Of a stretch of 64,000 bases of DNA, positions 2,133-50,534 are shown in pieces. The translations under genes and the position numbers were made by a program. The DNA comes from Minisyncoccota bacterium. GTDB lineage: Bacteria > Patescibacteriota > Minisyncoccia > UBA6257. The notes beneath the pieces were generated by a model. It was not told where the DNA came from and ran no database searches. It saw nothing but the letters and a program-made list of their open reading frames with translations. The DNA is taken from NCBI GenBank assembly GCA_028695015.1, contig JAQVJR010000001.1, forward strand, positions 33,645 to 97,644, given 5' to 3'. The first letter of the stretch is position 1, and each line of letters begins with the position of its first letter.

Positions 2133-3395
2133 TTAAAAATCCAATAATTTCTTAATTTTATCCTTCTGAACCTTATTTGTATTTTTTCCAATAATAATTA
2201 CATTTACTTTCTCTTTCTTAAAGATATTATTAGCTTCAACTTTTAAAGATTGAGTGGTGATTTTATCTATAATCTTCAGATCTTCTTTAATTGGTGTTAC
2301 TTTTCCATAATAAATTAAATCATAATTAATCCAATTAATTCTATCTAAATTATCTTCAAAAGCGTTTTTATCTGATTCTTTAACCTGTTTCTTTAATTCA
2401 TCTAATTTCTTTTTTGAGATTTCTTTGTTTTTTAATTCTTTTATAGCTTGATTAAATAATTCTAGCAAAGGTAATATTTTCTCATCTGGAATAAAAGAAT
2501 AGAAATATATCATTCCCATATTTCTCCAAACCAACTTTGTATAATCTAAATCATAAATTCCCAAAACTCTTAAATCCTTTAATAAACCATCAAGGGTATT
2601 AGATAATAAATGCCCTAATATTCTTAAAGATGTTCTTTGAGCTGGTTTTATTTTAGTATTATAAATAGGAAAACTTATACCTAGGCTATTAAGTTTACTA
2701 TGATTATTACTTTTTATAAGCTTGATTTTAAATTTAGAATATTTACATTTACCAAGACCATATTTTACTGGTTTCGCAGTTAATCTACATTTTTTAATAC
2801 AAGATAAGATTTCTTGAATAACTTGTGGCTTTAATTGATAAGCACTAAAAGTAAAAACAATATTTCCCTTGGTAAAGAATTTTTGATGATATTTTTCTAA
2901 ATCTTCAAGTTTAATTTTTTTAATATTTCTAATTTGATCTTCTCTAGTTCTTGTATAATGGCATTGCTTATCAACTCTTTCAGTTAAAACAGCTTGTTCT
3001 AAAAGATTTTCTAAATCCCCTATCTTAATATACAATTCATTAATTAAAACCTCTTTTTCTGATTGAAAAGCTTGTTTATCTGTAAATTCTGGTTTTAAAA
3101 TTGTATTAATAAAATCTTGTCCTTGTTCTGTTATCTCAGCTAAGGAAGAATATAAAGAAAACCTCATATCTTCCTTACCTATAGAACCTTCTACTTTTAA
3201 CCTTTTAGGTTTTTCTATATTTCTGAGCATTCTAATAAGATAATGCTCTAATAAATGACCCATCCCAAATTCCTTATCAGTTTCTTCAACATAACCACTT
3301 TTTACTAAAATATCTAAATAAACCTTATCTGTTTTATTAGGTAATTTAATAAAATACAAATTATCTTTTAAACTTATTTCCTTAATATAATTCAT
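2133..3395 (-). CDS. putative M16 (insulinase/pitrilysin-like) zinc peptidase
   Basis: 420 aa. N-terminal GMGHLLEH matches the inverted HxxEH zinc motif of M16 peptidases, and the length fits that family. Confidence 0.45.
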   Translation of the reverse strand: MNYIKEISLKDNLYFIKLPNKTDKVYLDILVKSGYVEETDKEFGMGHLLEHYLIRMLRNIEKPKRLKVEGSIGKEDMRFSLYSSLAEITEQGQDFINTILKPEFTDKQAFQSEKEVLINELYIKIGDLENLLEQAVLTERVDKQCHYTRTREDQIRNIKKIKLEDLEKYHQKFFTKGNIVFTFSAYQLKPQVIQEILSCIKKCRLTAKPVKYGLGKCKYSKFKIKLIKSNNHSKLNSLGISFPIYNTKIKPAQRTSLRILGHLLSNTLDGLLKDLRVLGIYDLDYTKLVWRNMGMIYFYSFIPDEKILPLLELFNQAIKELKNKEISKKKLDELKKQVKESDKNAFEDNLDRINWINYDLIYYGKVTPIKEDLKIIDKITTQSLKVEANNIFKKEKVNVIIIGKNTNKVQKDKIKKLLDF

Positions 3396-3440: not shown

Positions 3441-3540
3441 TAAAAAAAATGCTGCCGCTTCTGGCAAGCCAAAAACGACAGCATTATTAGTATAGCAAAT
3501 CTTAAAACCTTGTCAAGTCTTTTGTGGATAACTTAAGAAA
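3441..3540 (-). promoter_or_regulatory. conserved intergenic module copy 4 (hairpin 3449-3485; -10 3489-3494; -35 3511-3516; upstream-gene terminator 3546-3568)
   Basis: Read directly from sequence. Confidence 0.6.
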
Positions 3541-3586
3541 TACAAAACAGGGCTAAAAAGCCCTGTTTTTATCCAATTTCTAATCT

Positions 3587-5824
3587 TTAAACTCTTTTTC
3601 CTCTAAAGATAAAATAAGCTAAGCCACCTAAGGCTAAAACAGCTAATAAAGCTATTATGGCTCCTTTATTAGTTGCTGCTTCTTCTTCGGTTTCTTCTAG
3701 TTCTATTGTTTCTATATCTTCAGTTTCTAAAATTTCCATTACTTCTTCTTCCTCTTCTGGTTCTTGCTCAGAACTAACAGGAGTATCTAAAACATCTCCT
3801 TCTGGCACTGAACCATCATCAGCTAAGGCAATAGATTCTCCTAAAACCAATCCTTCACCTAAGCCAAAACATGTTTCATCAGAAATATCTGGTTTCATTT
3901 CAGGACAAAAGATATTATTAATTGCCCATCTGGTAGTTCTATAAACATAACCAGTAGCCATTTCTTCTGAAGACAAACATCCATTAGCAACCCAAGGAGC
4001 TAAAATATCATCCTTGAGCATGGTTTGGAATGTTTTTACTGCATTAAATGTATCTAAATCATAAATTCCATTAACATCTAAATTCAATCCCAAATATCCA
4101 TTTAAGAAGATTTGGAGTTTTCTAACTTCAAATGGATCATTATTAGCTCCATATTGAATGTATTCATGTAGATAAGGAACACAAGCAACACCAGCTACAA
4201 TACCCTCATCTCTTATGGTAGATTCACCTGCTATAGTACCTGATGAAAAACCTCCGCCTCCACCTCCGCCACCACCAGTAGGAGTTCCTCCAGATTCTTC
4301 GGTTTCTGTGTTAGATTGCTCTTCAGGTGGCTCAACACAACGATATACTTTAAGGTCTAAACTTCCTGTATTATCATCCATAGCTCCTTGGTCTTGATAA
4401 GAATTATACCAAGAATTGTACCAATCAGAAATGACAAAACTAACATTTACTTCTTCTTCTCCACTAATATGATAAGCTTTTTGGTATATATGTTCTGAAT
4501 TATAATCCCCCCAAGTAACTACCCCCATTTTGCCGGTTCCCATATCAGAAAGAAGTGATAACACTCCACGATATGGATTTCCTTTAATGCCTACGTCATC
4601 TCTTGGTATTGTTTTCCAACTATCTTTAGTGCCATAGCCTGCATCTGCTTTTTTATTCTCCTCTTTGCCACTATATTTATACACTCCAGAAACCTCAAAA
4701 AGATAATCGCCTGGATTTAAATCTATATTTTGTCCAATGCTATCTTGAGAATCAATATTTATTTCTTTAAACGGCTCTTCTTCTCTCTTGGTCCCTGACG
4801 GACAATCATGGTTTCCATTATACACAGGAACTAACTTGCACGTTTCCGTACAAAAATTACTTCCATCTTCAGCAACTCCTTCAAGCCCATCACATTCTTC
4901 ATCTCCTTCTTTTTTTCCATTACCACATTCTCCTGCTGCTTCTTCTGGCACTTCTAATACATTATAAGCTATACAATAAACATTTTCAGGCCATTGTGAA
5001 GTGTCGTTTCCTAATTGTATAAATTCTTTATTATCACCATTAACTGCATCCTTATAACAACGAAGAGCTGCAAATTTAGTTGCTCCTTCCATTGCTGGGC
5101 TATTATTTAAATCTTCACTAACCCATAATTGACCACCTTCAGTTAGTTGGTTTTGTTGTTCTGGTTTTAGTTCAGAAAAAGAAATGGGTTCATTAGAATT
5201 TACAGTGCTAACATTTGTTTCTTGTTCTTCATCTGTAGAAATTATAAATTGCCAGCCTCTTGCTAAATAGCAAACTCCAGGAATCTCATCTGGATCAACT
5301 GGCTTACCATTATTGTATGAACTGGGAAAACTATTTTCTTGATAATTAGCAAACTCTGTATATTTTTCCCCAGTAGCATCTAAGTGCTCTGCATTAGCAT
5401 TTCCATTAATATCTCCCCAAGATGGACATATCACTTTTATAAAATGAAAACTGGAGTTTATTGTTTCAGACGATCCATTGTCTCCTCCTGAACTTTCGCC
5501 ACAATACCCATGCTCGTGACAATGATTATGTTCTTGTCCTTGTCCTTGTCCTTGTCCTTGCCCTTGTCCTTGCCCTTGTCCTTGTCCTTGTCCTTGTCCT
5601 TGTCCTTGTCCTTGCCCTTGTCCTTGCCCTTGTCCTTGCCCTTGTCCTTGTCCTTGCCCTTGTCCTTGCCCTTGTCCTTGCCCTTGTCCTTGTCCTTGTC
5701 CTTGCTTATTCCCTGCTTCTATTATCCCTGGCTTCAACATCAATCCATTAGTAATTAACAAACTTAATACTATTACAATTGCAAATGTTTTTGTAAGAAA
5801 TTTTTTGTTCATATTTTTTTTCAA
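3587..5824 (-). CDS. large secreted surface protein: (GQ)32 repeat, Myxococcus-type Cys-rich repeat, peptidoglycan-binding domain, poly-Gly, acidic tail, C-terminal TM anchor
   Basis: 745 aa with signal peptide. A 32x Gly-Gln run comes from the CCTTGY hexanucleotide array. CGNGKKEGDEECDG…C…C resembles the Myxococcus Cys-rich repeat. LQIFLNGYLGLNLDVNGIYDLDTFNAVKTFQ resembles PG_binding_1. There is a GGGGGGGGG run, an EEEEE-rich tail and a C-terminal hydrophobic helix ending RGKRV. Confidence 0.7.
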   Translation of the reverse strand: MKKNMNKKFLTKTFAIVIVLSLLITNGLMLKPGIIEAGNKQGQGQGQGQGQGQGQGQGQGQGQGQGQGQGQGQGQGQGQGQGQGQGQGQGQGQGQGQEHNHCHEHGYCGESSGGDNGSSETINSSFHFIKVICPSWGDINGNANAEHLDATGEKYTEFANYQENSFPSSYNNGKPVDPDEIPGVCYLARGWQFIISTDEEQETNVSTVNSNEPISFSELKPEQQNQLTEGGQLWVSEDLNNSPAMEGATKFAALRCYKDAVNGDNKEFIQLGNDTSQWPENVYCIAYNVLEVPEEAAGECGNGKKEGDEECDGLEGVAEDGSNFCTETCKLVPVYNGNHDCPSGTKREEEPFKEINIDSQDSIGQNIDLNPGDYLFEVSGVYKYSGKEENKKADAGYGTKDSWKTIPRDDVGIKGNPYRGVLSLLSDMGTGKMGVVTWGDYNSEHIYQKAYHISGEEEVNVSFVISDWYNSWYNSYQDQGAMDDNTGSLDLKVYRCVEPPEEQSNTETEESGGTPTGGGGGGGGGFSSGTIAGESTIRDEGIVAGVACVPYLHEYIQYGANNDPFEVRKLQIFLNGYLGLNLDVNGIYDLDTFNAVKTFQTMLKDDILAPWVANGCLSSEEMATGYVYRTTRWAINNIFCPEMKPDISDETCFGLGEGLVLGESIALADDGSVPEGDVLDTPVSSEQEPEEEEEVMEILETEDIETIELEETEEEAATNKGAIIALLAVLALGGLAYFIFRGKRV
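5531..5706. repeat. hexanucleotide microsatellite (CCTTGY)n, ~30 units, encoding (GQ)32 on the minus strand
   Basis: Perfect or near-perfect tandem array. Confidence 0.9.
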
Positions 5825-5850
5825 TTTATTAGTTTTCGACCTTTAGTTTT

Positions 5851-6330
5851 TTATTTTTTAAATTTATAGACAAATAAATAAGATATAGCACCTATGCCTA
5901 TTATCCACCACCAAGTAGAAATACCAATGTTTTCTTTATATGCCTGTGCCATTAATTTTTCAGAAGCTGAAAATTCTAGTTCTTCCTCCATTTCTGGGTT
6001 TTTTTCTTGAATTTCTGTTTCTAATACAGTAGTGGGCGTTATGTCAATTATTGTTGTAGTTGTAGGCTTAGTAGTCGTTGTAGTAGGCTCAAGCGTAGTT
6101 GGGGAAGGAATAGGAACAGGGTTTATAACCCCGCAAGTGCAAGAAGGACTATAGGTGCCATCATTACAAACATATCTCCCAACTGATGAGTCACAATGAG
6201 ATACTCCGCCATGCCAAGAACAACAACCTCTTTTAGCATCAACATCATTTATTAAAAATAACAAAGAACAAATTATTATTACTAAAAGTGATAATAATTG
6301 TAAAAATTTTCTATGTTTAATCAAATTCAT
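5851..6330 (-). CDS. small Cys-rich secreted protein with Thr/Pro linker and C-terminal TM anchor
   Basis: 159 aa with signal peptide, a CCSWHGGVSHCD…C…C.C head, a PTTTTTKPTTTT linker, an acidic stretch and a WWWIIGIGAISYLFVYKFKK anchor. Lies 26 nt upstream of 3587..5824, so they are probably co-transcribed. Confidence 0.6.
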   Translation of the reverse strand: MNLIKHRKFLQLLSLLVIIICSLLFLINDVDAKRGCCSWHGGVSHCDSSVGRYVCNDGTYSPSCTCGVINPVPIPSPTTLEPTTTTTKPTTTTIIDITPTTVLETEIQEKNPEMEEELEFSASEKLMAQAYKENIGISTWWWIIGIGAISYLFVYKFKK

Positions 6331-6540
6331 TATATTTACTAAAATCTGAAATAATTAAATGCATAGAAAGCAGAACAGTCTTTTAATTAATCATTAAGGA
6401 AATTAAAATCACTTTTAATAGATCTATTATCCCATCATGAACTATTAGGAGGATTTCTGATATGAGAAAAAACACAAACACTAATCTTCCTGCAATATTC
6501 TTTTTTTAATCCCTAATAGTTGATCAAGTAGTTAATTAAA

Positions 6541-6692
6541 AAAATTGACGAATAACGTCAATTTAACTAATCTGCCTTAAGAGCAGATAAACTTTTGTAT
6601 TTGTTTAAAAGAGAGCATCCCACCATTTTATTGTTTATCTACTTAGTAGTCTCCCCTGGGCCTTTGCAGGCCCAGAGGAGAACCCCACCGTG
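6541..6692 (-). ncRNA. candidate small RNA 2 (promoter TTGACA 6721-6726 / TATCAT 6699-6704; terminator hairpin 6545-6561 + U-run)
   Basis: About 150-nt minus-strand unit containing a 13-bp GC-rich stem (6648-6683, UCUCCUCUGGGCC/GGCCCAGGGGAGA) in an AT-rich gene desert. No match to SRP, tmRNA or 6S motifs that I can recognise. Confidence 0.4.
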
Positions 6693-6946
6693 CTTACATG
6701 ATACTCTATTATTTTTTGTTTGTCAAGTCCTTGTCAAGTTTTTAAATAAAAAACAAATTTGTCAAATTTAAGGAAATTTTTAAAAATTTAATTTTAAATT
6801 TAAAAAATAATTCTTTAAAGTTATTTTAAAGATCCTTATCGGAAAATTTTATTATTCAATGCTTAATAATTCAATTTATAAATCTTAATTATTATATTAT
6901 CAATCAATAACAAGATTTTCTTTAAAACAATCAAGGAATTAGGTTT

Positions 6947-7039
6947 AAAAAAATGGCGTTTTTCAACGCCACTTTAAAACCTCCAAAATTTTGGAAAATA
7001 GGTTTTATATAAGCTCTTCCGGAAAAGCTTACCCCACTA
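6947..7039 (-). ncRNA. candidate small RNA 1 (promoter TTGACA 7068-7073 / TATACT 7046-7051; terminator GGCGTT-GAAAA-ACGCC 6955-6970 + U7)
   Basis: About 95-nt unit with internal palindromes AAGCUUUUCCGGAAGAGCUU and UCCAAAAUUUUGGA. Its promoter is a partial copy of the conserved module promoter. Confidence 0.4.
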
Positions 7040-7111
7040 CAAGATAGTATATATGATAAATAAAAATTGTCAAGTCTTTTATCCACAATCTCATAATTTC
7101 ACAAACTATGG

Positions 7112-7212
7112 AATAAAAAATGCTGTCGCCCTTGGCAAGCCAAAAACGACAGCATTATTAGTATATCAAATCCAAAACCCTTGTCAAGTCTATTGGGGAT
7201 AACTTTTAAAAT
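7112..7212 (-). promoter_or_regulatory. conserved intergenic module copy 5 (hairpin 7119-7156; -10 7160-7165; -35 7182-7187; terminator 7216-7242)
   Basis: Read directly from sequence. What follows downstream is another promoter and a candidate sRNA, not a protein gene. Confidence 0.6.
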
Positions 7213-7247
7213 GAAAAAGGGACTATATTATATAGTCCCTTTTGATT

Positions 7248-7922
7248 TTAATAGTACTCAATACTTTGTGCTGTTACATAGACCACCCTCTTAGTTGGAG
7301 AGAGTTTAATCTTCACTTGTTTAGCTTTCTTTTCTCCAGCTAATCCTTCCTTCAAGTCTACACATTTGACCACTTGTGAATCATCTTCAAAGGTTATCAT
7401 AAAGCAAACCTTTTCCACTGTCACTTTTTCTCCCTTGAAGTTTTGCATTTCAAAATCTACAAATACATCACCCCAGGTCAAATAGCAACAACAGGGTCCA
7501 GAAGGAGGACAAATTGGACAAACACACTCTGGGCATTCATCACAAATACACTCTGGACATTCATCACATATACACTCTGGGCAATCTTCACAAACAGGAC
7601 AATCTGGGCAACAAGAATCACAAGCAGGGCAAGTTGGACAACAAGAATCACAAGCGGGGCAATTACATGGTGGACATGTAGGTGGTGGACAAGGAGGATA
7701 GCAATAACCACATCTTGTCATCAAATCCCTAGGTAAATCACCATTAGCAACTCTTGTTATGCCTTTTGAAGAGTCACAAGAAACCTCTTGCTCAAAGCCA
7801 GTTACCCAAACTTCTACATCTTCTGTTATTGAAGGAATGATTGATCCACTCTTACATCCAGTTAAGAACAATACCATTAAAACCATTGCTAAGATTAACA
7901 ATCTTTTTCTCATTTTTTTCAC
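7248..7922 (-). CDS. lipoprotein with extreme Cys/Pro-rich tandem-repeat core (CPxC / ICDECPEC units)
   Basis: 224 aa with lipobox LFLTGC. A 75-aa stretch contains about 40 Cys (CYPPCPPPTCPPCNCPACDSCCP…CDECPECICDECPECICDECPECVCPICPP…CCC). Consensus promoter and AGGAGGTG SD lie upstream. Confidence 0.65.
   Translation of the reverse strand: MKKMRKRLLILAMVLMVLFLTGCKSGSIIPSITEDVEVWVTGFEQEVSCDSSKGITRVANGDLPRDLMTRCGYCYPPCPPPTCPPCNCPACDSCCPTCPACDSCCPDCPVCEDCPECICDECPECICDECPECVCPICPPSGPCCCYLTWGDVFVDFEMQNFKGEKVTVEKVCFMITFEDDSQVVKCVDLKEGLAGEKKAKQVKIKLSPTKRVVYVTAQSIEYY
7523..7670. repeat. tandem 24-nt repeats (x3) plus ~33-nt repeats (x2) encoding ICDECPEC / CDSCCPxCPAC units
   Basis: acactctgggcattcatcacaaat, acactctggacattcatcacatat and acactctgggcaatcttcacaaac in tandem. 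Confidence 0.8.
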
Positions 7923-8046: not shown

Positions 8047-9213
8047 TTATTTAGTAAAATTATCCTGAATTACTTGTAAAACTGGTTTATCCCAGATAGC
8101 CCAACTCCGATCATTTTCTTCAGATTTAGCTGTTGGCCAATAAAACCAGAACGCTCCTGCCCACCAACTTTCTTTCTCAAACACGTTAAATAATGCTTGA
8201 GTCGCTAAAATTTGTTCTTCTGGACTATAAACCTCTCTGCCTTTTTCTCCCCTTGGAACTTTATCCTCACTATTCCAAGGCTCCATACTGGTGCCTTCTG
8301 TACTTCGATATCCAATTTCAGAAAATATCATCTTTTGGTTAAAGGTTTTTGCTATTGTTTCTAATTGCTTTACTATATTTTGATTACCATGCCTGCTTTC
8401 AAACCAAGCCCTTTCTATATCTTCTAAACTTGGATTAAGCTTTTTAGTCAAATCAAAATAAGGAGCCATAGAGATAATATCTAGATCTTTTAACCAGTCT
8501 AAAGTTAATGTTCTTTTAAAAGTTATCTCTTGCCACCAACAATTAAGCTTAGCGGTTATTAATCCCTGATATTGTTCTTTTATCTTGTAGATAAGATGCC
8601 TCCATCTCTGATCTTCTGGCCAAAGAGAATGAAATTCATTGCCTATGCAAAAAAGTTCCACCCCACAAGCCTCTGCTAAACCAGCATAATAAATTAAGGC
8701 ATTACCATAAGAAATAAACCATTGATTAATATCTTTTGGCTCTAAGCTAGCAACATAATCCCTATCCTCTCCTACGATAAGATCTGGTAATAAAGAAACT
8801 TTTTTTCCAGCTTGATGAATCATCGTAATCATGCTTTCTAAAGTTAAATCTTGAGTTTGGTCATATATTACTTGATTAGAGTCTAAAGTCTTTTGATACA
8901 AAAAAAACCTTAATTGAACATAGTTAATTTCTTGAATTTTCAAAAGGTTTTCTAAAGCATTAAAGGCTTCTAAGCTAGAATATGGATGAGGATCTGGATA
9001 AAAATCTATTCCCCTAAATTCTAAATCATTTTCCTTTATCAACCCGGTTTCTTTAGCCAATGACTCTATTACAAATTCTTCAGTGTAAATATAGTAATCT
9101 TTTTCATCTCTTAATTTAAGAAAAAAAGAAAATGTGTTCTTGATTTCTATTAAAGAAATAACCAAACAAATTAAGATTACCATAGTTATCACTATTCTTT
9201 TTTTAACATCCAT
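8047..9213 (-). CDS. membrane-anchored clan GH-A glycoside hydrolase (GH5/GH113-like)
   Basis: 388 aa with N-terminal TM. CIGNEFH (acid/base NE) and FSEIGY (nucleophile E) are spaced as in (beta/alpha)8 GH-A enzymes, and it has an aromatic-rich C-terminus. Confidence 0.55.
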   Translation of the reverse strand: MDVKKRIVITMVILICLVISLIEIKNTFSFFLKLRDEKDYYIYTEEFVIESLAKETGLIKENDLEFRGIDFYPDPHPYSSLEAFNALENLLKIQEINYVQLRFFLYQKTLDSNQVIYDQTQDLTLESMITMIHQAGKKVSLLPDLIVGEDRDYVASLEPKDINQWFISYGNALIYYAGLAEACGVELFCIGNEFHSLWPEDQRWRHLIYKIKEQYQGLITAKLNCWWQEITFKRTLTLDWLKDLDIISMAPYFDLTKKLNPSLEDIERAWFESRHGNQNIVKQLETIAKTFNQKMIFSEIGYRSTEGTSMEPWNSEDKVPRGEKGREVYSPEEQILATQALFNVFEKESWWAGAFWFYWPTAKSEENDRSWAIWDKPVLQVIQDNFTK

Positions 9214-10610
9214 TATTGATCACCTCCTTGCTCTAATTGTCGCAGAAGATTAATGTCATAAACCGTTCTCGGACGAGATATGTTTTGATCGCCATAATGA
9301 ACTGTTTTAGTTTCTTGCCATGATTTTACTCCTAAGCTATACAAACTGCACCAAAGCCAATGAAATCCAAAAATCCAATACACTGGTAAAAACAAAGCTC
9401 TTTTCCAGCCTCTTTTTTTAATACTATTGTAAAAAAGAAAACCAAAAAAAGTACTTGTCCAAATTAACCAAATCCAACCAGTAATATTAAAAATGGACAC
9501 TTGATTGGTTAAATAGTAAAACCAATAAAGAAAATTACTTGCCCACCAAGCAAACACTGATAAAGGGCTTAAACGATAAGCATAATCTAACCAATTGCCA
9601 AATCTATGCAAATTATCCCAAGTCACTCTTAAATGCCCTTTAATCCATCGGGACCTTTGTTTCATAACTCCACTCCAAGAAGGCGGTTTTTCATCATAAA
9701 CCACAAGATTATCTGCAAAGATAATTTTCTTATTTTCTAGAGTTAATCTAGTAAATAATTCAAAATCTTCTACTAAAGAATTAGTCCATCCTTCTGCTTC
9801 TTGTAAGACTCTAGTTCGGATAAATATTCCTGTGCCTGCTAAAAAACAAGGCAATTTAAAAACATCTCTTCCTCGCCATGAAATAGAAGAAAAAGTATCA
9901 TATTCCACTTCTTGAAGAAATGTCAAAATTGAAGAATACATATTGCTTGTTGAAAGCTCTGCCTGAATTGCATCAATTTCTTCATTTTTGAAATAAGCCA
10001 TTGCCCGGTTAAACAATTTTTTATCCTTTATCCTATTATCAGTATCAAATTGAGCAATAATCTTCCCTTTTGCCGCTTTTAATCCTTCATTTAAAGCTAA
10101 GGCTTTGCCTGATTTACGAGTTTGAATATCTAATACCTTAATCCTTTCATCACTTACAGATTTTGCATTCCTAATAGTATTATCAGTACAATTATGGGCC
10201 AAAACCAGAATTTCCAAGTTTTTGTATTCTTGACAAATTAAATCATTCAGAATGTTTCTTATGACTTTCTCCTCATTATGAGCCGGAATCATTACTGAAA
10301 TCAAAACTGAATCATCTTCTTCTATCTTATCTTCTTTTTTATTATAAAAGATACTGGCCACTCCCATTAAGACCCAAATAAACATACTGAGATACATTAA
10401 GACTACACATAGCAACAAGAAAAAAGGAAACTGAATATCCAAGGAAAAAAAAGCAAAACGATTACTTAAAACCAACCCTTTGCCTACCCCAAATACTTGT
10501 AAGACAGTCATCAGTAAAATAGAGATAACATATGCTGACAGAACAGTTGTAGCACAAGCATAAACAAAATCTTCTAAAGAAAAAATCCCTAATTTTCTAA
10601 GAATTTTCAC
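9213..10610 (-). CDS. processive family-2 glycosyltransferase (membrane polysaccharide synthase; D,D,D,QxxRW type)
   Basis: 465 aa with multiple TM helices, a PAHNEE…FDTDN (DxD) motif and a QRSRW motif typical of cellulose/chitin/PNAG-synthase-like GT2 enzymes. Confidence 0.75.
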   Translation of the reverse strand: MKILRKLGIFSLEDFVYACATTVLSAYVISILLMTVLQVFGVGKGLVLSNRFAFFSLDIQFPFFLLLCVVLMYLSMFIWVLMGVASIFYNKKEDKIEEDDSVLISVMIPAHNEEKVIRNILNDLICQEYKNLEILVLAHNCTDNTIRNAKSVSDERIKVLDIQTRKSGKALALNEGLKAAKGKIIAQFDTDNRIKDKKLFNRAMAYFKNEEIDAIQAELSTSNMYSSILTFLQEVEYDTFSSISWRGRDVFKLPCFLAGTGIFIRTRVLQEAEGWTNSLVEDFELFTRLTLENKKIIFADNLVVYDEKPPSWSGVMKQRSRWIKGHLRVTWDNLHRFGNWLDYAYRLSPLSVFAWWASNFLYWFYYLTNQVSIFNITGWIWLIWTSTFFGFLFYNSIKKRGWKRALFLPVYWIFGFHWLWCSLYSLGVKSWQETKTVHYGDQNISRPRTVYDINLLRQLEQGGDQ

Positions 10611-11425: not shown

Positions 11426-11525
11426 GTAAAAAAATGCTGCCGCTTCTGGCAAGCCAAAAACGACAGCATTATTAGTATATCAAATCTTAAAACCTTGTCA
11501 AGTCTATTGTGGATAACTTAAAACC
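11426..11525 (-). promoter_or_regulatory. conserved intergenic module copy 6 (hairpin 11433-11470; -10 11474-11479; -35 11496-11501; terminator 11521-11542)
   Basis: Read directly from sequence. Confidence 0.6.
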
Positions 11526-48971: not shown

Positions 48972-50534
48972 TTAGGAGATTAATCCCCTTAAGAATCCTT
49001 GGAGTTTATCAGGTAGAACAGGAATGATTTCTTGCCACCAAGGAAGGTTAACTGCTTGGACTTCTATGTAGTCTAATTCAGTACCAAGAGTATCTTCCCA
49101 AGTAACACAAGTATTTTCATTGTCTTTGTCATAACAGGCTTTTAATTGATATGTATAGACACCTGGTGTTGTGATATGGAAAGACTTTTCATGATCAATA
49201 GAGCCAACGGTCACATTACCACTAAGAGTTTCATTATCTCCACAATCTTTATCTCCTAATTTACAAGTGATTTCACCCCATTTACAATCACTATTGGTAG
49301 ACCACTTTGCTTCATAATCAACTCCTGTCCAGACATGATTGGGTAATTCAAATTTGTTAATGGAGCATGTGGGGGATGGGAGTGGTGGAGGTGATTTTTT
49401 GCAACTAGCTTGACAAGAACTTGATGAAGAATACTTTCCTGAAGCATCTGGATAGCATTGCCCAGTACTTGTATTGCAAGAATAACGAGTAGAAGGAGTT
49501 GGTTTTTTACAGTTGGCTTGACAAGAACTTAATGAGGTGTAGGGCCCAGAAGGATCTTTAGAGCATTGCCAAGTGGTAGTATTACAAGAATAACGAGTAG
49601 AAGGAGTTGGTTTTTTACAGTTGGTTTGGCAAGAGCTTAATGTAGAATATGACCCTGAGGAACTTTCAGTGCATTGCCAAGTGGTGGTATTGCAGGCATA
49701 ACGAATAGCAGGAGGTGGTAGCTCAGGGGTGGGTGTTCCATTTTCACAATCACTATCTTTTTGGCATTGATCGTCATTAATTGACCGACATGTTTTTGCA
49801 TTTTTTAAACAATGCCAATCTCCCCATAAACCAAGGTATTGCTTATTACAATAATTACAAAACGTACAATTTGCCAAACATGCTTCTTCGGTATAAAAAG
49901 TTGTTTTTAGTGTTTTTTTGTAAACACAGGTCCCATATTTTTGCCCTGAAGAATGTTCGCAATACCAACCAGATTCTTTTCCAAAAGGATCTTCTGTGGT
50001 TGGAACACTAGATCCTCCGCATTGCTCAGGCCCCGTACATTCATCTATGCAAGATCCGGGTGTCAACTCAGATGTAGCTTTGCATTGAGTCCCCAAACAT
50101 TTAAAACATTGCACACCTGAGCAATCACTCTGCCATTCACAAGAATTTGAACAAGGCGAATTAAAAGTTTTTGATTCACATTTACCAAATGAACAAGTCT
50201 TACAGGTATATTTTTCACAAGCTGAACAATTGGTAGTGCATGGTTCTTTTGAATCTATAGTCATGCATTCTCCTCCCATACATTTATGGCATATATAATA
50301 CCCCGATGGATCAACTGCACCTTGCTTTTTAGTAGTGGTTGTCGTAGATGCTGCAGAACATTTTCTTTGACATTCTTCTAAAGTTTTATAATCTCCATCA
50401 TCATAGGTATCCCTATAACATGTTCCGGTTTGCCAATTGCAAACATATGGCTTCTTCGCACCTAAAGCTACTGAATTAGTAAAAAGAATTAAAAAGAAAC
50501 TTATTAATAATATTGTATTTATTCTTTTATTCAT
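48972..50534 (-). CDS. secreted Cys-module protein (tandem ~36-aa TWQC…SSCQxNCKK modules + conserved 135-aa C-terminal domain), cassette copy 1
   Basis: 520 aa with signal peptide and more than 60 Cys. Three near-identical 108-nt DNA repeats. C-terminal 135 aa are about 90% identical to 51740..52951. Confidence 0.7.
   Translation of the reverse strand: MNKRINTILLISFFLILFTNSVALGAKKPYVCNWQTGTCYRDTYDDGDYKTLEECQRKCSAASTTTTTKKQGAVDPSGYYICHKCMGGECMTIDSKEPCTTNCSACEKYTCKTCSFGKCESKTFNSPCSNSCEWQSDCSGVQCFKCLGTQCKATSELTPGSCIDECTGPEQCGGSSVPTTEDPFGKESGWYCEHSSGQKYGTCVYKKTLKTTFYTEEACLANCTFCNYCNKQYLGLWGDWHCLKNAKTCRSINDDQCQKDSDCENGTPTPELPPPAIRYACNTTTWQCTESSSGSYSTLSSCQTNCKKPTPSTRYSCNTTTWQCSKDPSGPYTSLSSCQANCKKPTPSTRYSCNTSTGQCYPDASGKYSSSSSCQASCKKSPPPLPSPTCSINKFELPNHVWTGVDYEAKWSTNSDCKWGEITCKLGDKDCGDNETLSGNVTVGSIDHEKSFHITTPGVYTYQLKACYDKDNENTCVTWEDTLGTELDYIEVQAVNLPWWQEIIPVLPDKLQGFLRGLIS
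49392..49715. repeat. three tandem ~108-nt direct repeats (36-aa Cys modules)
   Basis: Units at 49392-49499, 49500-49607 and 49608-49715 are about 85-95% identical. Confidence 0.8.

Follow-up and report, generated by a model that had tools for sequence, protein, structure and literature searches.

A mosaic surface protein with a length-variable Gly-Gln tract and a small partner protein in a Candidatus Paceibacterota genome

Two adjoining genes in a metagenome-assembled genome of the Candidatus Paceibacterota lineage (CPR) appear to encode one surface-protein unit, in which a large modular adhesin carries a Gly-Gln tract of variable length and exchangeable heads and is accompanied by a small, constant partner. 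We analyzed a 64-kb stretch of this genome (the window, to which all coordinates refer) and compared it with other assembly contigs and loci (L numbers). Taken as a whole, the explanation developed here is one that we consider reasonably likely. CPR bacteria (Patescibacteria) are believed to live on the surface of other cells, and to our knowledge their attachment proteins are almost wholly uncharacterized. The locus provides a concrete candidate, with a putative wall-binding foot, modules resembling pilins and lectins for which Pfam has no family, head swaps at the strain level, and a repeat that varies five-fold in length between near-identical genomes.

Both open reading frames described in an earlier note on this DNA are present on the minus strand (Table 1). 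For the large gene, gene callers chose the in-frame ATG on sister contigs, including L007. The small gene, already noted as its neighbor, adjoins it in all three allele groups, across a gap of 26 nt in the window and 26 to 38 nt among the groups. No terminator-like hairpin was found in the 26-nt gap, and the only one of the gene pair follows the large gene. Given the short gap, the kept adjacency, and the position of that hairpin, the two genes are probably cotranscribed. Across all allele groups, the leader region upstream of the small gene shows 93.6 to 99.9% conservation. A promoter-like site (6726-6698) lies in it, as does a structured stretch (z = -5.7) that ends in a terminator-like hairpin (6564-6542); 6697-6535 is a candidate leader or sRNA. 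An Rfam scan placed the 917-nt leader in no family; matches to Histone3, DapZ, and mir-365 were below the gathering score and implausible. Compensatory covariation in the structured element was not seen among the available sequences because they are too similar.

Table 1. Positions of genes, protein segments, and noncoding elements of the locus in the window
Feature	Position	Strand	Description
Terminator-like hairpin with T-run	3544..3569	-	18 nt past the large-gene stop codon
Large gene	3587..5824	-	745 aa from TTG 5824, or 741 aa from ATG 5812 (ORF analysis)
Acidic stalk, TM helix, and basic tail RGKRV	3590..3886	-	Stalk aa 647-716 (net charge -27), TM aa 717-742
PG_binding_1-type helical module	3887..4186	-	aa ~547-646; family-specific C-terminal extension (PW...TGYVYxTT...IN...C)
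Gly9 linker	4250..4276	-	aa 517-525
Module B	4331..4831	-	aa 332-498; uncharacterized beta-sandwich family; predicted LecA/PllA lectin-like fold
Cys-rich acidic repeat CGNGKKEGDEECDG...C...C	4832..4930	-	aa 299-331; single copy, no array
Module A	4946..5461	-	aa 122-293; Patescibacteria-restricted family without a Pfam model; predicted CnaB/prealbumin (Gram-positive pilin-like) beta-sandwich fold
His/Cys-rich acidic segment EHNHCHEHGYCGESSGGDNGSSET	5462..5533	-	aa 98-121
Hexanucleotide array (GGRCAA)28 encoding (GQ)28	5534..5701	-	aa 42-97
Signal peptide	5714..5824	-	aa 1-37; Lys-rich n-region, hydrophobic core, IEA/G end (slash, cleavage site)
Small gene	5851..6330	-	159 aa (ORF analysis)
Noncoding leader region	6331..7247	-	917 nt, upstream of the small gene; conserved

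We propose that the large protein is a type I membrane-anchored, wall-associated modular adhesin. Outward from the membrane, it would consist of the basic tail, the TM helix, the 70-aa acidic stalk, the PG_binding_1 module, and the Gly9 hinge, followed by the LecA/PllA-like module, the Cys-rich repeat, the CnaB/pilin-like module, the His/Cys cluster, and the (GQ)n tail, which would be disordered and, after removal of the signal peptide, exposed. Its hydrophobic segments are an N-terminal one (aa 9-35) and the C-terminal TM anchor (aa 717-742) that the earlier note had recognized along with the Glu-rich tail and Gly9, both of which are confirmed; in the L001 allele, G8 takes the place of Gly9. 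The protein lacks an LPXTG motif. A match to PF14283 (CD1107-like) over the TM helix and acidic tail was below the cut-off and was treated as compositional.

Full-length Pfam and NCBIfam scans returned none of the expected domains (PF01471 was absent at E<=0.1), and the matches came from the modules alone. Scanned in this way, the helical module matched PG_binding_1 (PF01471) at 25.1 to 25.5 bits against a gathering cut-off of 23, over profile positions 4 to 39 of 57. All six members of the module's family matched PF01471 (best E, 2.2e-8), and its fold is the three-helix bundle of known PG_binding_1 domains. These results agree with the helix bundle of peptidoglycan-binding type proposed from the letters, and the module is a candidate wall-binding foot. 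When the segment alone was searched by sequence against the PDB, it gave spurious matches to DCN1, and the family profile was needed.

Two independent methods gave module B the fold of LecA, with a model of moderate quality (pLDDT, 39 to 96). It is like the lectins PA-IL/LecA, PllA, and EclA-N in fold, with insertions, but not at the sequence level: Pfam at E<=10 (including PF07828) gave no match, and a profile search of the PDB found no lectin. The module B family has an invariant D...DN.G motif (D471/D488/N489 of the full-length protein), which we take to resemble the D100/N107/N108 site of LecA. The large protein probably binds sugar. Module A has a prealbumin-like beta-sandwich and is alike in fold to the CnaB/SpaA pilin-adhesins; it differs from them in having no Pfam SpaA/CnaB match even at E<=10 and in belonging to a protein without LPXTG. 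The motif CGNG...EECD...C...C (aa 300-329) had been called a Myxococcus-type Cys repeat. That name may be apt: TIGR02232 matched the 41-aa segment in isolation (23.2 bits; cut-off, 20.8), PF13948 (DUF4215) scored 10.5 bits against 27 (E = 0.81), and the full-length scans matched neither. At the position of the His/Cys-rich segment, for which a metal-binding role is speculation, relatives have an N/Q/G-rich stretch and then an (I/V/L)CH...HGD module.

The mosaic character of the locus proved stronger than had been claimed, with three head alleles on the same foot. The head in the window is replaced in sister strains by two other, largely unrelated heads, and the small gene, the signal peptide, and the PG-binding/TM foot are common to all three. 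Between the window and L001, homology ends at 5736 and restarts at 4930. L019 and L020 match the window at every position between 7400 and 6200 (100% identity) and at 93% beyond that; from 5735 to 4208 they show no homology, after which identity is 84 to 92%. To judge by these alignments, diversification of the head is obvious, and we propose that homologous recombination in the conserved flanks swaps heads between co-occurring strains. The sister allele of L001 to L003 carries an in-frame TAA, and loss of the locus is therefore apparently not lethal.

The Gly-Gln tract is encoded by the only period-6 array that TRF detected in the 64-kb window (5529-5704; 29.3 copies; score, 289), in agreement with the 176-nt extent and CCTTGY unit reported before. 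It consists of 20 GGACAA and 8 GGGCAA units between the unique flanks GGGAATAAGCAA ... GAACATAATCAT and translates to exactly (GQ)28, the earlier (GQ)32 being a miscount. Chance cannot account for 28 tandem in-frame hexamers. A collagen-like reading was rejected, since a dipeptide repeat does not fit G-X-Y, and a match to NF033849 ("serine-rich") covering the tract was below the cut-off and was treated as compositional. Unit counts are 28 for the window, 55 for L007, and 11 for L008; L009, with a 100-N gap in the array, has at least 23. The flanks of these variants are 99.7 to 100% identical. Array length thus differs five-fold between assemblies, always by a multiple of 6 nt and with the reading frame kept, as expected of the frame-keeping slippage hotspot that the earlier note had suspected. 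At the assembly level, then, a tandem simple-sequence repeat (SSR) within a surface-protein coding region differs in copy number between near-identical genomes. We infer that, in the GQ-bearing allele, (GGRCAA)n is lengthened and shortened by replication slippage, or else by unequal recombination. Because units are gained and lost whole, the effect would be confined to the length of the distal tail.

Could the array have one fixed length in vivo, with the 11, 28, and 55 units arising from collapse or expansion in short-read metagenome assembly? Assemblers clearly struggle here, because five contigs (L010 to L014) break off in or at the array and a 100-N scaffold gap interrupts it in L009; the 168-nt array of the window is also longer than common read lengths. 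However, the arrays are not subpaths of one another, since the L008 path is compatible with L007 k-mers only up to k=36 and the last unit of the window differs from that of L007, L008, and L009. A graph loop cannot make the variant units private to L007 (GAGCAA and GGCCAA). The A/G pattern is interspersed, and all array k-mers are unique from k=60 in the window and from k=96 in L007, so ordinary assemblers are able to resolve these arrays. Single reads would cover the whole 66-nt array of L008, as would any k of about 70 or more. As a control, a 503-aa allele with its own (NGEG)n low-complexity tract was identical in four independent assemblies. Given these results, we regard a fixed length as unlikely. 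If the variation is real, it may still be without consequence, the tract being a microsatellite that expanded recently and is selectively neutral, within a disordered N-terminal region. Its absence from both sister alleles and from all 234 relatives examined, which have merely short N/Q/G-rich stretches directly after the signal peptide, is consistent with this, and its two synonymous units speak for a young amplification. Against it, although not decisively, the frame is kept over a five-fold length range in a background that is 99.7 to 100% identical, and the tract would form the outermost, most exposed part of a protein with an otherwise obviously diversifying head. Neutrality is a possibility that we take seriously while doubting it.

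The position of the tract also bears on the model of the earlier note, in which an uncleaved N-terminal anchor and the C-terminal TM helix hold the protein at both ends, (GQ)n is a tunable spacer, and the small protein completes a cell-wall-spanning complex. The large protein does have two hydrophobic segments, the small anchored protein is a conserved neighbor, and there is a precedent in the length-tuned Ser-Asp stalks of staphylococci. However, the N-terminal segment has the n-h-c organization of a classic signal peptide, and all three alleles have small residues at -3/-1; it is 85% conserved in the other two, where it ends VQA/V and AEA/K. By the -3/-1 rule, it is most likely cleaved. Because of this AXA-type cleavage motif, the GQ tract most likely forms the free distal N terminus, at the point farthest from the wall-binding foot. 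An array opposite the PG-binding foot cannot set the distance from the wall to a binding module, and a tract at a free end is probably not a spacer between two anchors. The wall-spanning complex, proposed from gene adjacency, is not supported. We therefore consider this model very improbable. Returning to the single-anchored adhesin, its role would most likely be attachment to carbohydrate on a partner cell or matrix. Head swaps and changes in tail length would then diversify an exposed, selected surface, for instance against phage, host, or predator. In its strongest form, the locus would be a true contingency locus in which hexanucleotide slippage continually resets the length of the Gly-Gln tail that tips a lectin-type adhesin and recombination swaps its whole head between coexisting strains, tuning or diversifying host attachment or phage escape. 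We put this forward tentatively, as a rather unlikely reading. If it is true, the locus would be the first case of SSR-driven surface variation to be described in the CPR radiation and a handle on partner recognition by these episymbionts; in our literature search, no paper tied CPR to SSR-driven variation or described a Gly-Gln surface repeat.

The small protein would be the constant partner, a disulfide knot held on a Pro/Thr stalk by a C-terminal anchor. It has a signal peptide (aa 1-32; VDA/K), a six-Cys head of Dis2/YdcA type (aa 33-66), and a Pro/Thr-rich linker (aa 67-104) followed by an acidic stretch. The Cys-rich head and PTTTT linker of the earlier description therefore stand. The C terminus (aa 136-159), an aromatic hydrophobic GISTWWWIIGIGAISYLFVY followed by KFKK, has a Kyte-Doolittle mean of about 1.4, below the threshold of 1.6, and the anchor claimed there is plausible but less certain. 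The head is homologous to Dis2 (PDB 7MUC_AN; phmmer E = 3.8e-16), with both lobes aligning and the Cys residues in register, and its family comprises 911 representative clusters at E<=1e-3. Against PRK10040 it scored 30.6 bits, short of the equivalog cut-off of 93; by these scores the head is a homologous domain and not an equivalog. Dis2 has two lobes pinned by five disulfides and no known function (PMC8486379). With Dis2 (Lpg0823 of the Legionella Dot/Icm system) and the YdcA-type periplasmic proteins of E. coli (PRK10040), the head shares the disulfide motif GCCSxxGGxxxCDSSxGRxVCNDGxxSxxCxC. Unlike Dis2, the small protein has a single lobe, continues into a Pro/Thr stalk and putative C-terminal anchor, and belongs to a CPR bacterium without a T4SS context. 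A mini-domain that has no known function even in the Legionella T4SS would thus occur in a new setting, that of a stalked, anchored surface protein.

Comparison with other bacteria places the large protein among known designs. The Vlp lipoproteins of Mycoplasma and streptococcal alpha-C/Rib are size-variable surface proteins with in-frame repeats. They share with it the exposed protein, whole-unit changes that keep the frame, and copy numbers that differ between close strains; here the unit is a hexanucleotide for pure Gly-Gln, it is distal and N-terminal in a CPR host, and the variation is known between assemblies. In the staphylococcal Clf/Sdr proteins, an SD repeat separates the binding domain from the LPXTG wall anchor and acts as a wall-spanning stalk. 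The likeness extends to a modular wall-associated adhesin, a long dipeptide repeat from short degenerate units, Ig/CnaB-type beta-sandwiches, and a C-terminal anchor. In contrast, the repeat here follows immediately on the signal peptide, at the far end of the protein from the anchor and not in a stalk position, and anchoring would be by the TM helix and PG_binding_1 without an LPXTG/sortase signal. The pneumococcal choline-binding proteins PspA/PspC and the CWB2 proteins of C. difficile combine a conserved wall-binding module with variable heads. They are similar in their conserved anchor module, recombining mosaic heads, and several alleles at one locus, and they differ in that the anchor here is PG_binding_1 plus a TM helix and the heads are CPR-specific modules without a Pfam family. 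Because variable repeats and mosaic heads are well known on surface proteins, the conceptual advance is modest. The large protein is a modestly interesting addition to the size-variable mosaic surface adhesins, with a trick familiar in bacteria and a lineage that is little studied. Size-variable surface proteins with in-frame coding repeats, like coding SSRs in general, are a known kind (PMC3315296).

Neither the 745-aa protein nor the 795-aa protein of L007 was on record by exact look-up. Locus searches gave no match with module A in JGI metagenome contigs or with aa 98-745 in GTDB representative genomes, and a look-up through the cluster of the M16 neighbor (P0079) led to an unrelated context in which the array is absent. 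Besides the source of the window, raw reads stand behind GCA_028718665.1, GCA_040364315.1, ERZ2647956, ERZ2648087, SRR8925753, SRR31357141, and SRR11702764. The locus does recur in anaerobic-digester and biogas metagenomes, so its length polymorphism can be checked on existing reads.

Different relatives matched different parts of the large protein in BLAST against 11 homologues, and it is therefore modular. Full-length scans with Pfam and NCBIfam gave no matches; the family matches that follow come from modules scanned alone. Residues 299 to 331 matched TIGR02232 (myxo_disulf_rpt; 23.2 bits, cut-off 20.8), with Pfam DUF4215 below significance there, and residues ~547 to 646 matched PF01471 (PG_binding_1; 25.1 bits, cut-off 23). 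PF01471 was matched by six of six members of the latter module's family, whose profile found PG_binding_1-bearing wall enzymes as its best PDB matches and which has a conserved family-specific extension, PW...TGYVYxTT...IN...C. The Cys motif, Gly9, Glu-rich tail and terminal hydrophobic segments of the earlier note were present as described. Module A (aa 122 to 293, a CnaB/pilin-like beta-sandwich) belongs to no Pfam family, and its profile found 31 further proteins, all from Parcubacteria/Patescibacteria. Module B (aa 332 to 498), also outside Pfam, found 29 further proteins. Foldseek matched it first to EclA's PllA/LecA-like lectin domain (E=5e-4, probability 1.0) and then to various CBMs. 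Because a profile search gave no sequence-level match to lectins in the PDB and the structural model is only moderately confident, we describe Module B as lectin-fold-like and rejected membership in the LecA family. Many relatives (P0002, P0019, P0021, P0027, P0028, P0048, P0051-P0056 and allele 3 of contig L016) have a ~50-aa module straight after the signal peptide, (K)(I/V)x(I/V)CH...(N)PW/Y..I.I...A...H..HGD...C, for which no Pfam match is recorded in these proteins; the acidic His/Cys cluster of the window protein may be its vestige.

In the N-terminal hydrophobic segment, a Lys-rich n region and a hydrophobic h region precede an IEA-G c region, and the corresponding segment in the two other alleles ends VQA-V and AEA-K. 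From the -3/-1 rule, not from software, we infer a cleavable signal peptide. Because the basic residues past the C-terminal helix also fit the positive-inside rule, a type-I topology is most likely for the large protein. Its PG-binding module would then lie beside the membrane anchor, with the lectin-like and pilin-like modules projecting outward and (GQ)n forming a free distal N-terminal tail. This topology contradicts the earlier reading of a protein anchored at both ends with the repeat as a tunable spacer.

Features of the locus and its surroundings (window positions in nt; protein positions in aa)
Feature	Position	Strand	Details
Small ORF	5851-6330	minus	159 aa
Large ORF	3587-5824	minus	745 aa from TTG
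Signal peptide, large protein	aa 1-37
Period-6 array (TRF)	5529-5704		29.3 copies, score 289
(GQ)28	5534-5701; aa 42-97
Acidic His/Cys cluster, large protein			EHNHCHEHGYCGE
Gly9 hinge, large protein
Acidic segment, large protein			70 aa, net charge -27
TM helix, large protein	aa 717-742		one only
Basic C-terminal tail, large protein			RGKRV
Promoter-like site	6726-6698	minus	within 917-nt gap 6331-7247
GC-rich structured stretch	6535-6697	minus	~160 nt; MFE -56.7 kcal/mol, z=-5.7
Terminator-like hairpin	6564-6542	minus	closes structured stretch
~100-nt intergenic element	1210-1248, 2030-2147, 3444-3547, 7115-7218, 11464-11502	minus	also in L001, L004, L016
Two paralogous ORFs	484-1041, 1288-1845	minus	185 aa; N-terminal TM segment each
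M16 peptidase gene	2133-3395		insulinase family; downstream of large gene
Putative lipoprotein ORF	7248-7922	minus	LTGC lipobox
GH113 and GT2 genes	8047-10610	minus	just upstream of surface-protein genes
Tandem repeat	49387-49719		108-nt period, 3.1 copies, 80% match; inside ORF 48972-50534

Closely related genomes carry one of three alleles at this locus, of which the window type is allele 1. Allele 2 (contigs L001 to L003) is homologous to the window up to 5736 and again from 4930, and in between it lacks the GQ tract and has a different Cys-containing N-terminus. Its Module A belongs to the same family as the window's but has diverged deeply, with only ~23% identity; its Module B is 61 to 76% identical (nucleotide) and its foot (PG-binding module, acidic segment and TM anchor) 96 to 98%. 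The allele 2 large gene would be one continuous frame but for one in-frame TAA, which follows codon 82 (L001 2109-2111). The TAA is also in L002 and L003, and gene calls are split in the same way in contigs from three or more samples; the gene is likely a pseudogene or an OFF variant of the locus. Allele 3 (L015 to L020, including GCA_028694995.1; 503 aa) resembles the window protein only in the signal peptide (85%) and in the PG-binding/acidic/TM foot (85% amino acid identity), and its central ~270 aa are unrelated. In L019 and L020, identity to the window is 100% from ~7400 to 6200 and 93% through the small gene's 3' half and the signal peptide; homology is absent from 5735 to 4208, and identity returns to 84 to 92% in the foot, a profile characteristic of recombination with breakpoints within the locus. 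The head, the modules in between, is thus a swappable cassette flanked by conserved recombination arms. The term mosaic in the earlier note holds more strongly than intended.

The array has the extent and unit described before, and the window holds no other array of period 6. It translates to exactly (GQ)28; the (GQ)32 reported before was a miscount. The units, 20 GGACAA and 8 GGGCAA, are synonymous and interspersed as aaagagagaagagagaaaaaagagaaaa. A (GQ) run of at least three units was found in 0 of the 234 related proteins compared. At the tract's position, relatives often have a short N/Q/G-rich stretch and then an (I/V/L)CH...HGD module; there, the related protein P0013 carries ~60 aa made up of N/Q/D/G/H, and allele 3 carries (NG)3. 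Polar, amide-rich N-terminal tails are thus a family trend, and the GQ tract of the window looks like a microsatellite amplification of such a tail.

The exact small protein was found on 13 public contigs, with flanks 99.7 to 100% identical to the window's and with differing arrays. Against 28 units in the window, L007 (GCA_028718665.1, 220.7-kb contig; 795-aa gene) has 55, including one GAGCAA (Glu-Gln) and one GGCCAA, and L008 (GCA_040364315.1; complete on both sides) has 11; L009 has 19 units, a 100-N gap and 4 units, and the L010 to L014 contigs stop at or inside the array. The frame is kept in all complete versions, which bears out, at the assembly level, the earlier proposal that length changes without breaking frame. 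These differences might be purely artefacts of assembly, and the broken contigs do show that assemblers struggle at the array. However, the L008 path could be constructed from L007 k-mers only up to k=36, and the window array is not a collapsed form of the L007, L008 or L009 arrays because its terminal unit differs from theirs. L007 also carries private variant units not creatable by a graph loop. The A and G units are mixed in irregular order, so that no k-mer occurs twice from k=60 in the window, k=96 in L007 and k=29 in L008, values that standard assemblers can reach. The 503-aa sister allele, with its own (NGEG)n tract, served as a control and was identical in four independent assemblies. 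Given the k-mer tests and this control, the length polymorphism is probably real and pure artefact quite improbable.

On balance, we favor an explanation in which the large protein would be a membrane-anchored, wall-associated adhesin that probably binds carbohydrate through one of its modules. Its exposed head would be diversified by cassette exchange via conserved flanks and, in the window allele, also by slippage or unequal recombination in the hexanucleotide array. The latter would alter only the length of the disordered distal Gly-Gln tail, which may matter for reach, shielding or self-association or else be neutral; neutrality strikes us as possible, if doubtful. The general principle of repeat-variable, mosaic surface proteins is already well known: some surface proteins vary in size through in-frame repeats, staphylococcal proteins have Ser-Asp dipeptide stalks, and other families join mosaic heads to a conserved wall-binding module. 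Unlike these, the large protein has its repeat at the distal rather than the wall-spanning end, is anchored by a TM helix and PG_binding_1 rather than LPXTG (absent from it), has two modules without a curated family and comes from a CPR lineage. A literature search found no report of SSR-linked surface variation in CPR.

In each of the three allele groups, the small gene immediately precedes the large gene (gaps of 26 to 38 nt; 26 nt in the window). Given this conserved adjacency, the lack of a terminator-like hairpin between the genes and a clear one 18 nt past the large gene's stop codon, co-transcription is likely. Gene callers on sister contigs start the large gene at an in-frame ATG (5812; 741 aa). 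The small protein begins with a signal peptide (VDA-K) and a six-Cys head, GCCSWHGGVSHCDSSVGRYVCNDGTYSPSCTC; a Pro/Thr stalk and an acidic stretch then lead to a C-terminus that is aromatic and hydrophobic and carries KFKK. Its head matched both lobes of PDB 7MUC chain AN (E=3.8e-16), which is Dis2 (Lpg0823) of the Legionella Dot/Icm outer-membrane cap. Dis2 has two similar lobes pinned by five disulfides and was described without structural relatives and with its function unknown (PMC8486379). NCBIfam PRK10040 models matched the small protein weakly, under cut-off, and its family comprises 911 representative clusters at E<=1e-3, several matching full length. Trp residues hold the Kyte-Doolittle mean of the C-terminal segment to ~1.4, below the usual threshold of 1.6, so a C-terminal anchor is plausible and less certain.

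The non-coding gap upstream of the small gene is 93.6 to 99.9% conserved in all allele groups. Its structured stretch had no Rfam match, and the only substitutions in the stems turn G-C into G-U, none of them compensatory; the stretch is a candidate for a small RNA or a leader preceding the gene pair. Additionally, at least five copies of a ~100-nt intergenic element occur in the window's first 12 kb, flanking the gene pair and the M16 gene. On the gene strand, a near-consensus promoter, TTGACA-16-TATACT (extended -10 TG at most copies), is followed immediately by a 17-bp hairpin and T-run; the element may act as a promoter/attenuator module, as a terminator-promoter unit or as a substrate for recombination. 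The M16 gene is missing from allele-3 genomes (L016/L019/L020), where 178/190-aa paralogues follow directly, and copies of the element border this indel. In L004, the M16 gene lies upstream, not downstream, of the homologous large gene. The 185-aa paralogues had no family match; in L016 to L020, their position is taken by homologues of 178 and 190 aa.

The window is bacterial chromosome (~31% GC) with genes almost all on one strand, and it contains RNase P RNA, four tRNAs and a probable ribosomal-protein cluster. Database look-up recorded the small protein and the adjoining M16 peptidase as Candidatus Pacebacteria/Paceibacterota MAG proteins, and related contigs came mainly from biogas and digester metagenomes. 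The GH113 glycoside hydrolase, the GT2 glycosyltransferase and the surface-protein genes may form a cell-envelope or exopolysaccharide neighbourhood. The putative lipoprotein has a Cys/Pro-rich core (CPxC-type motifs) coded by 24- and 30-nt tandem repeats, and its L016 orthologue is 38 aa shorter, making it a second repeat-variable surface gene beside the locus. Farther away, the ORF with the 108-nt repeat may encode another repeat-containing protein.
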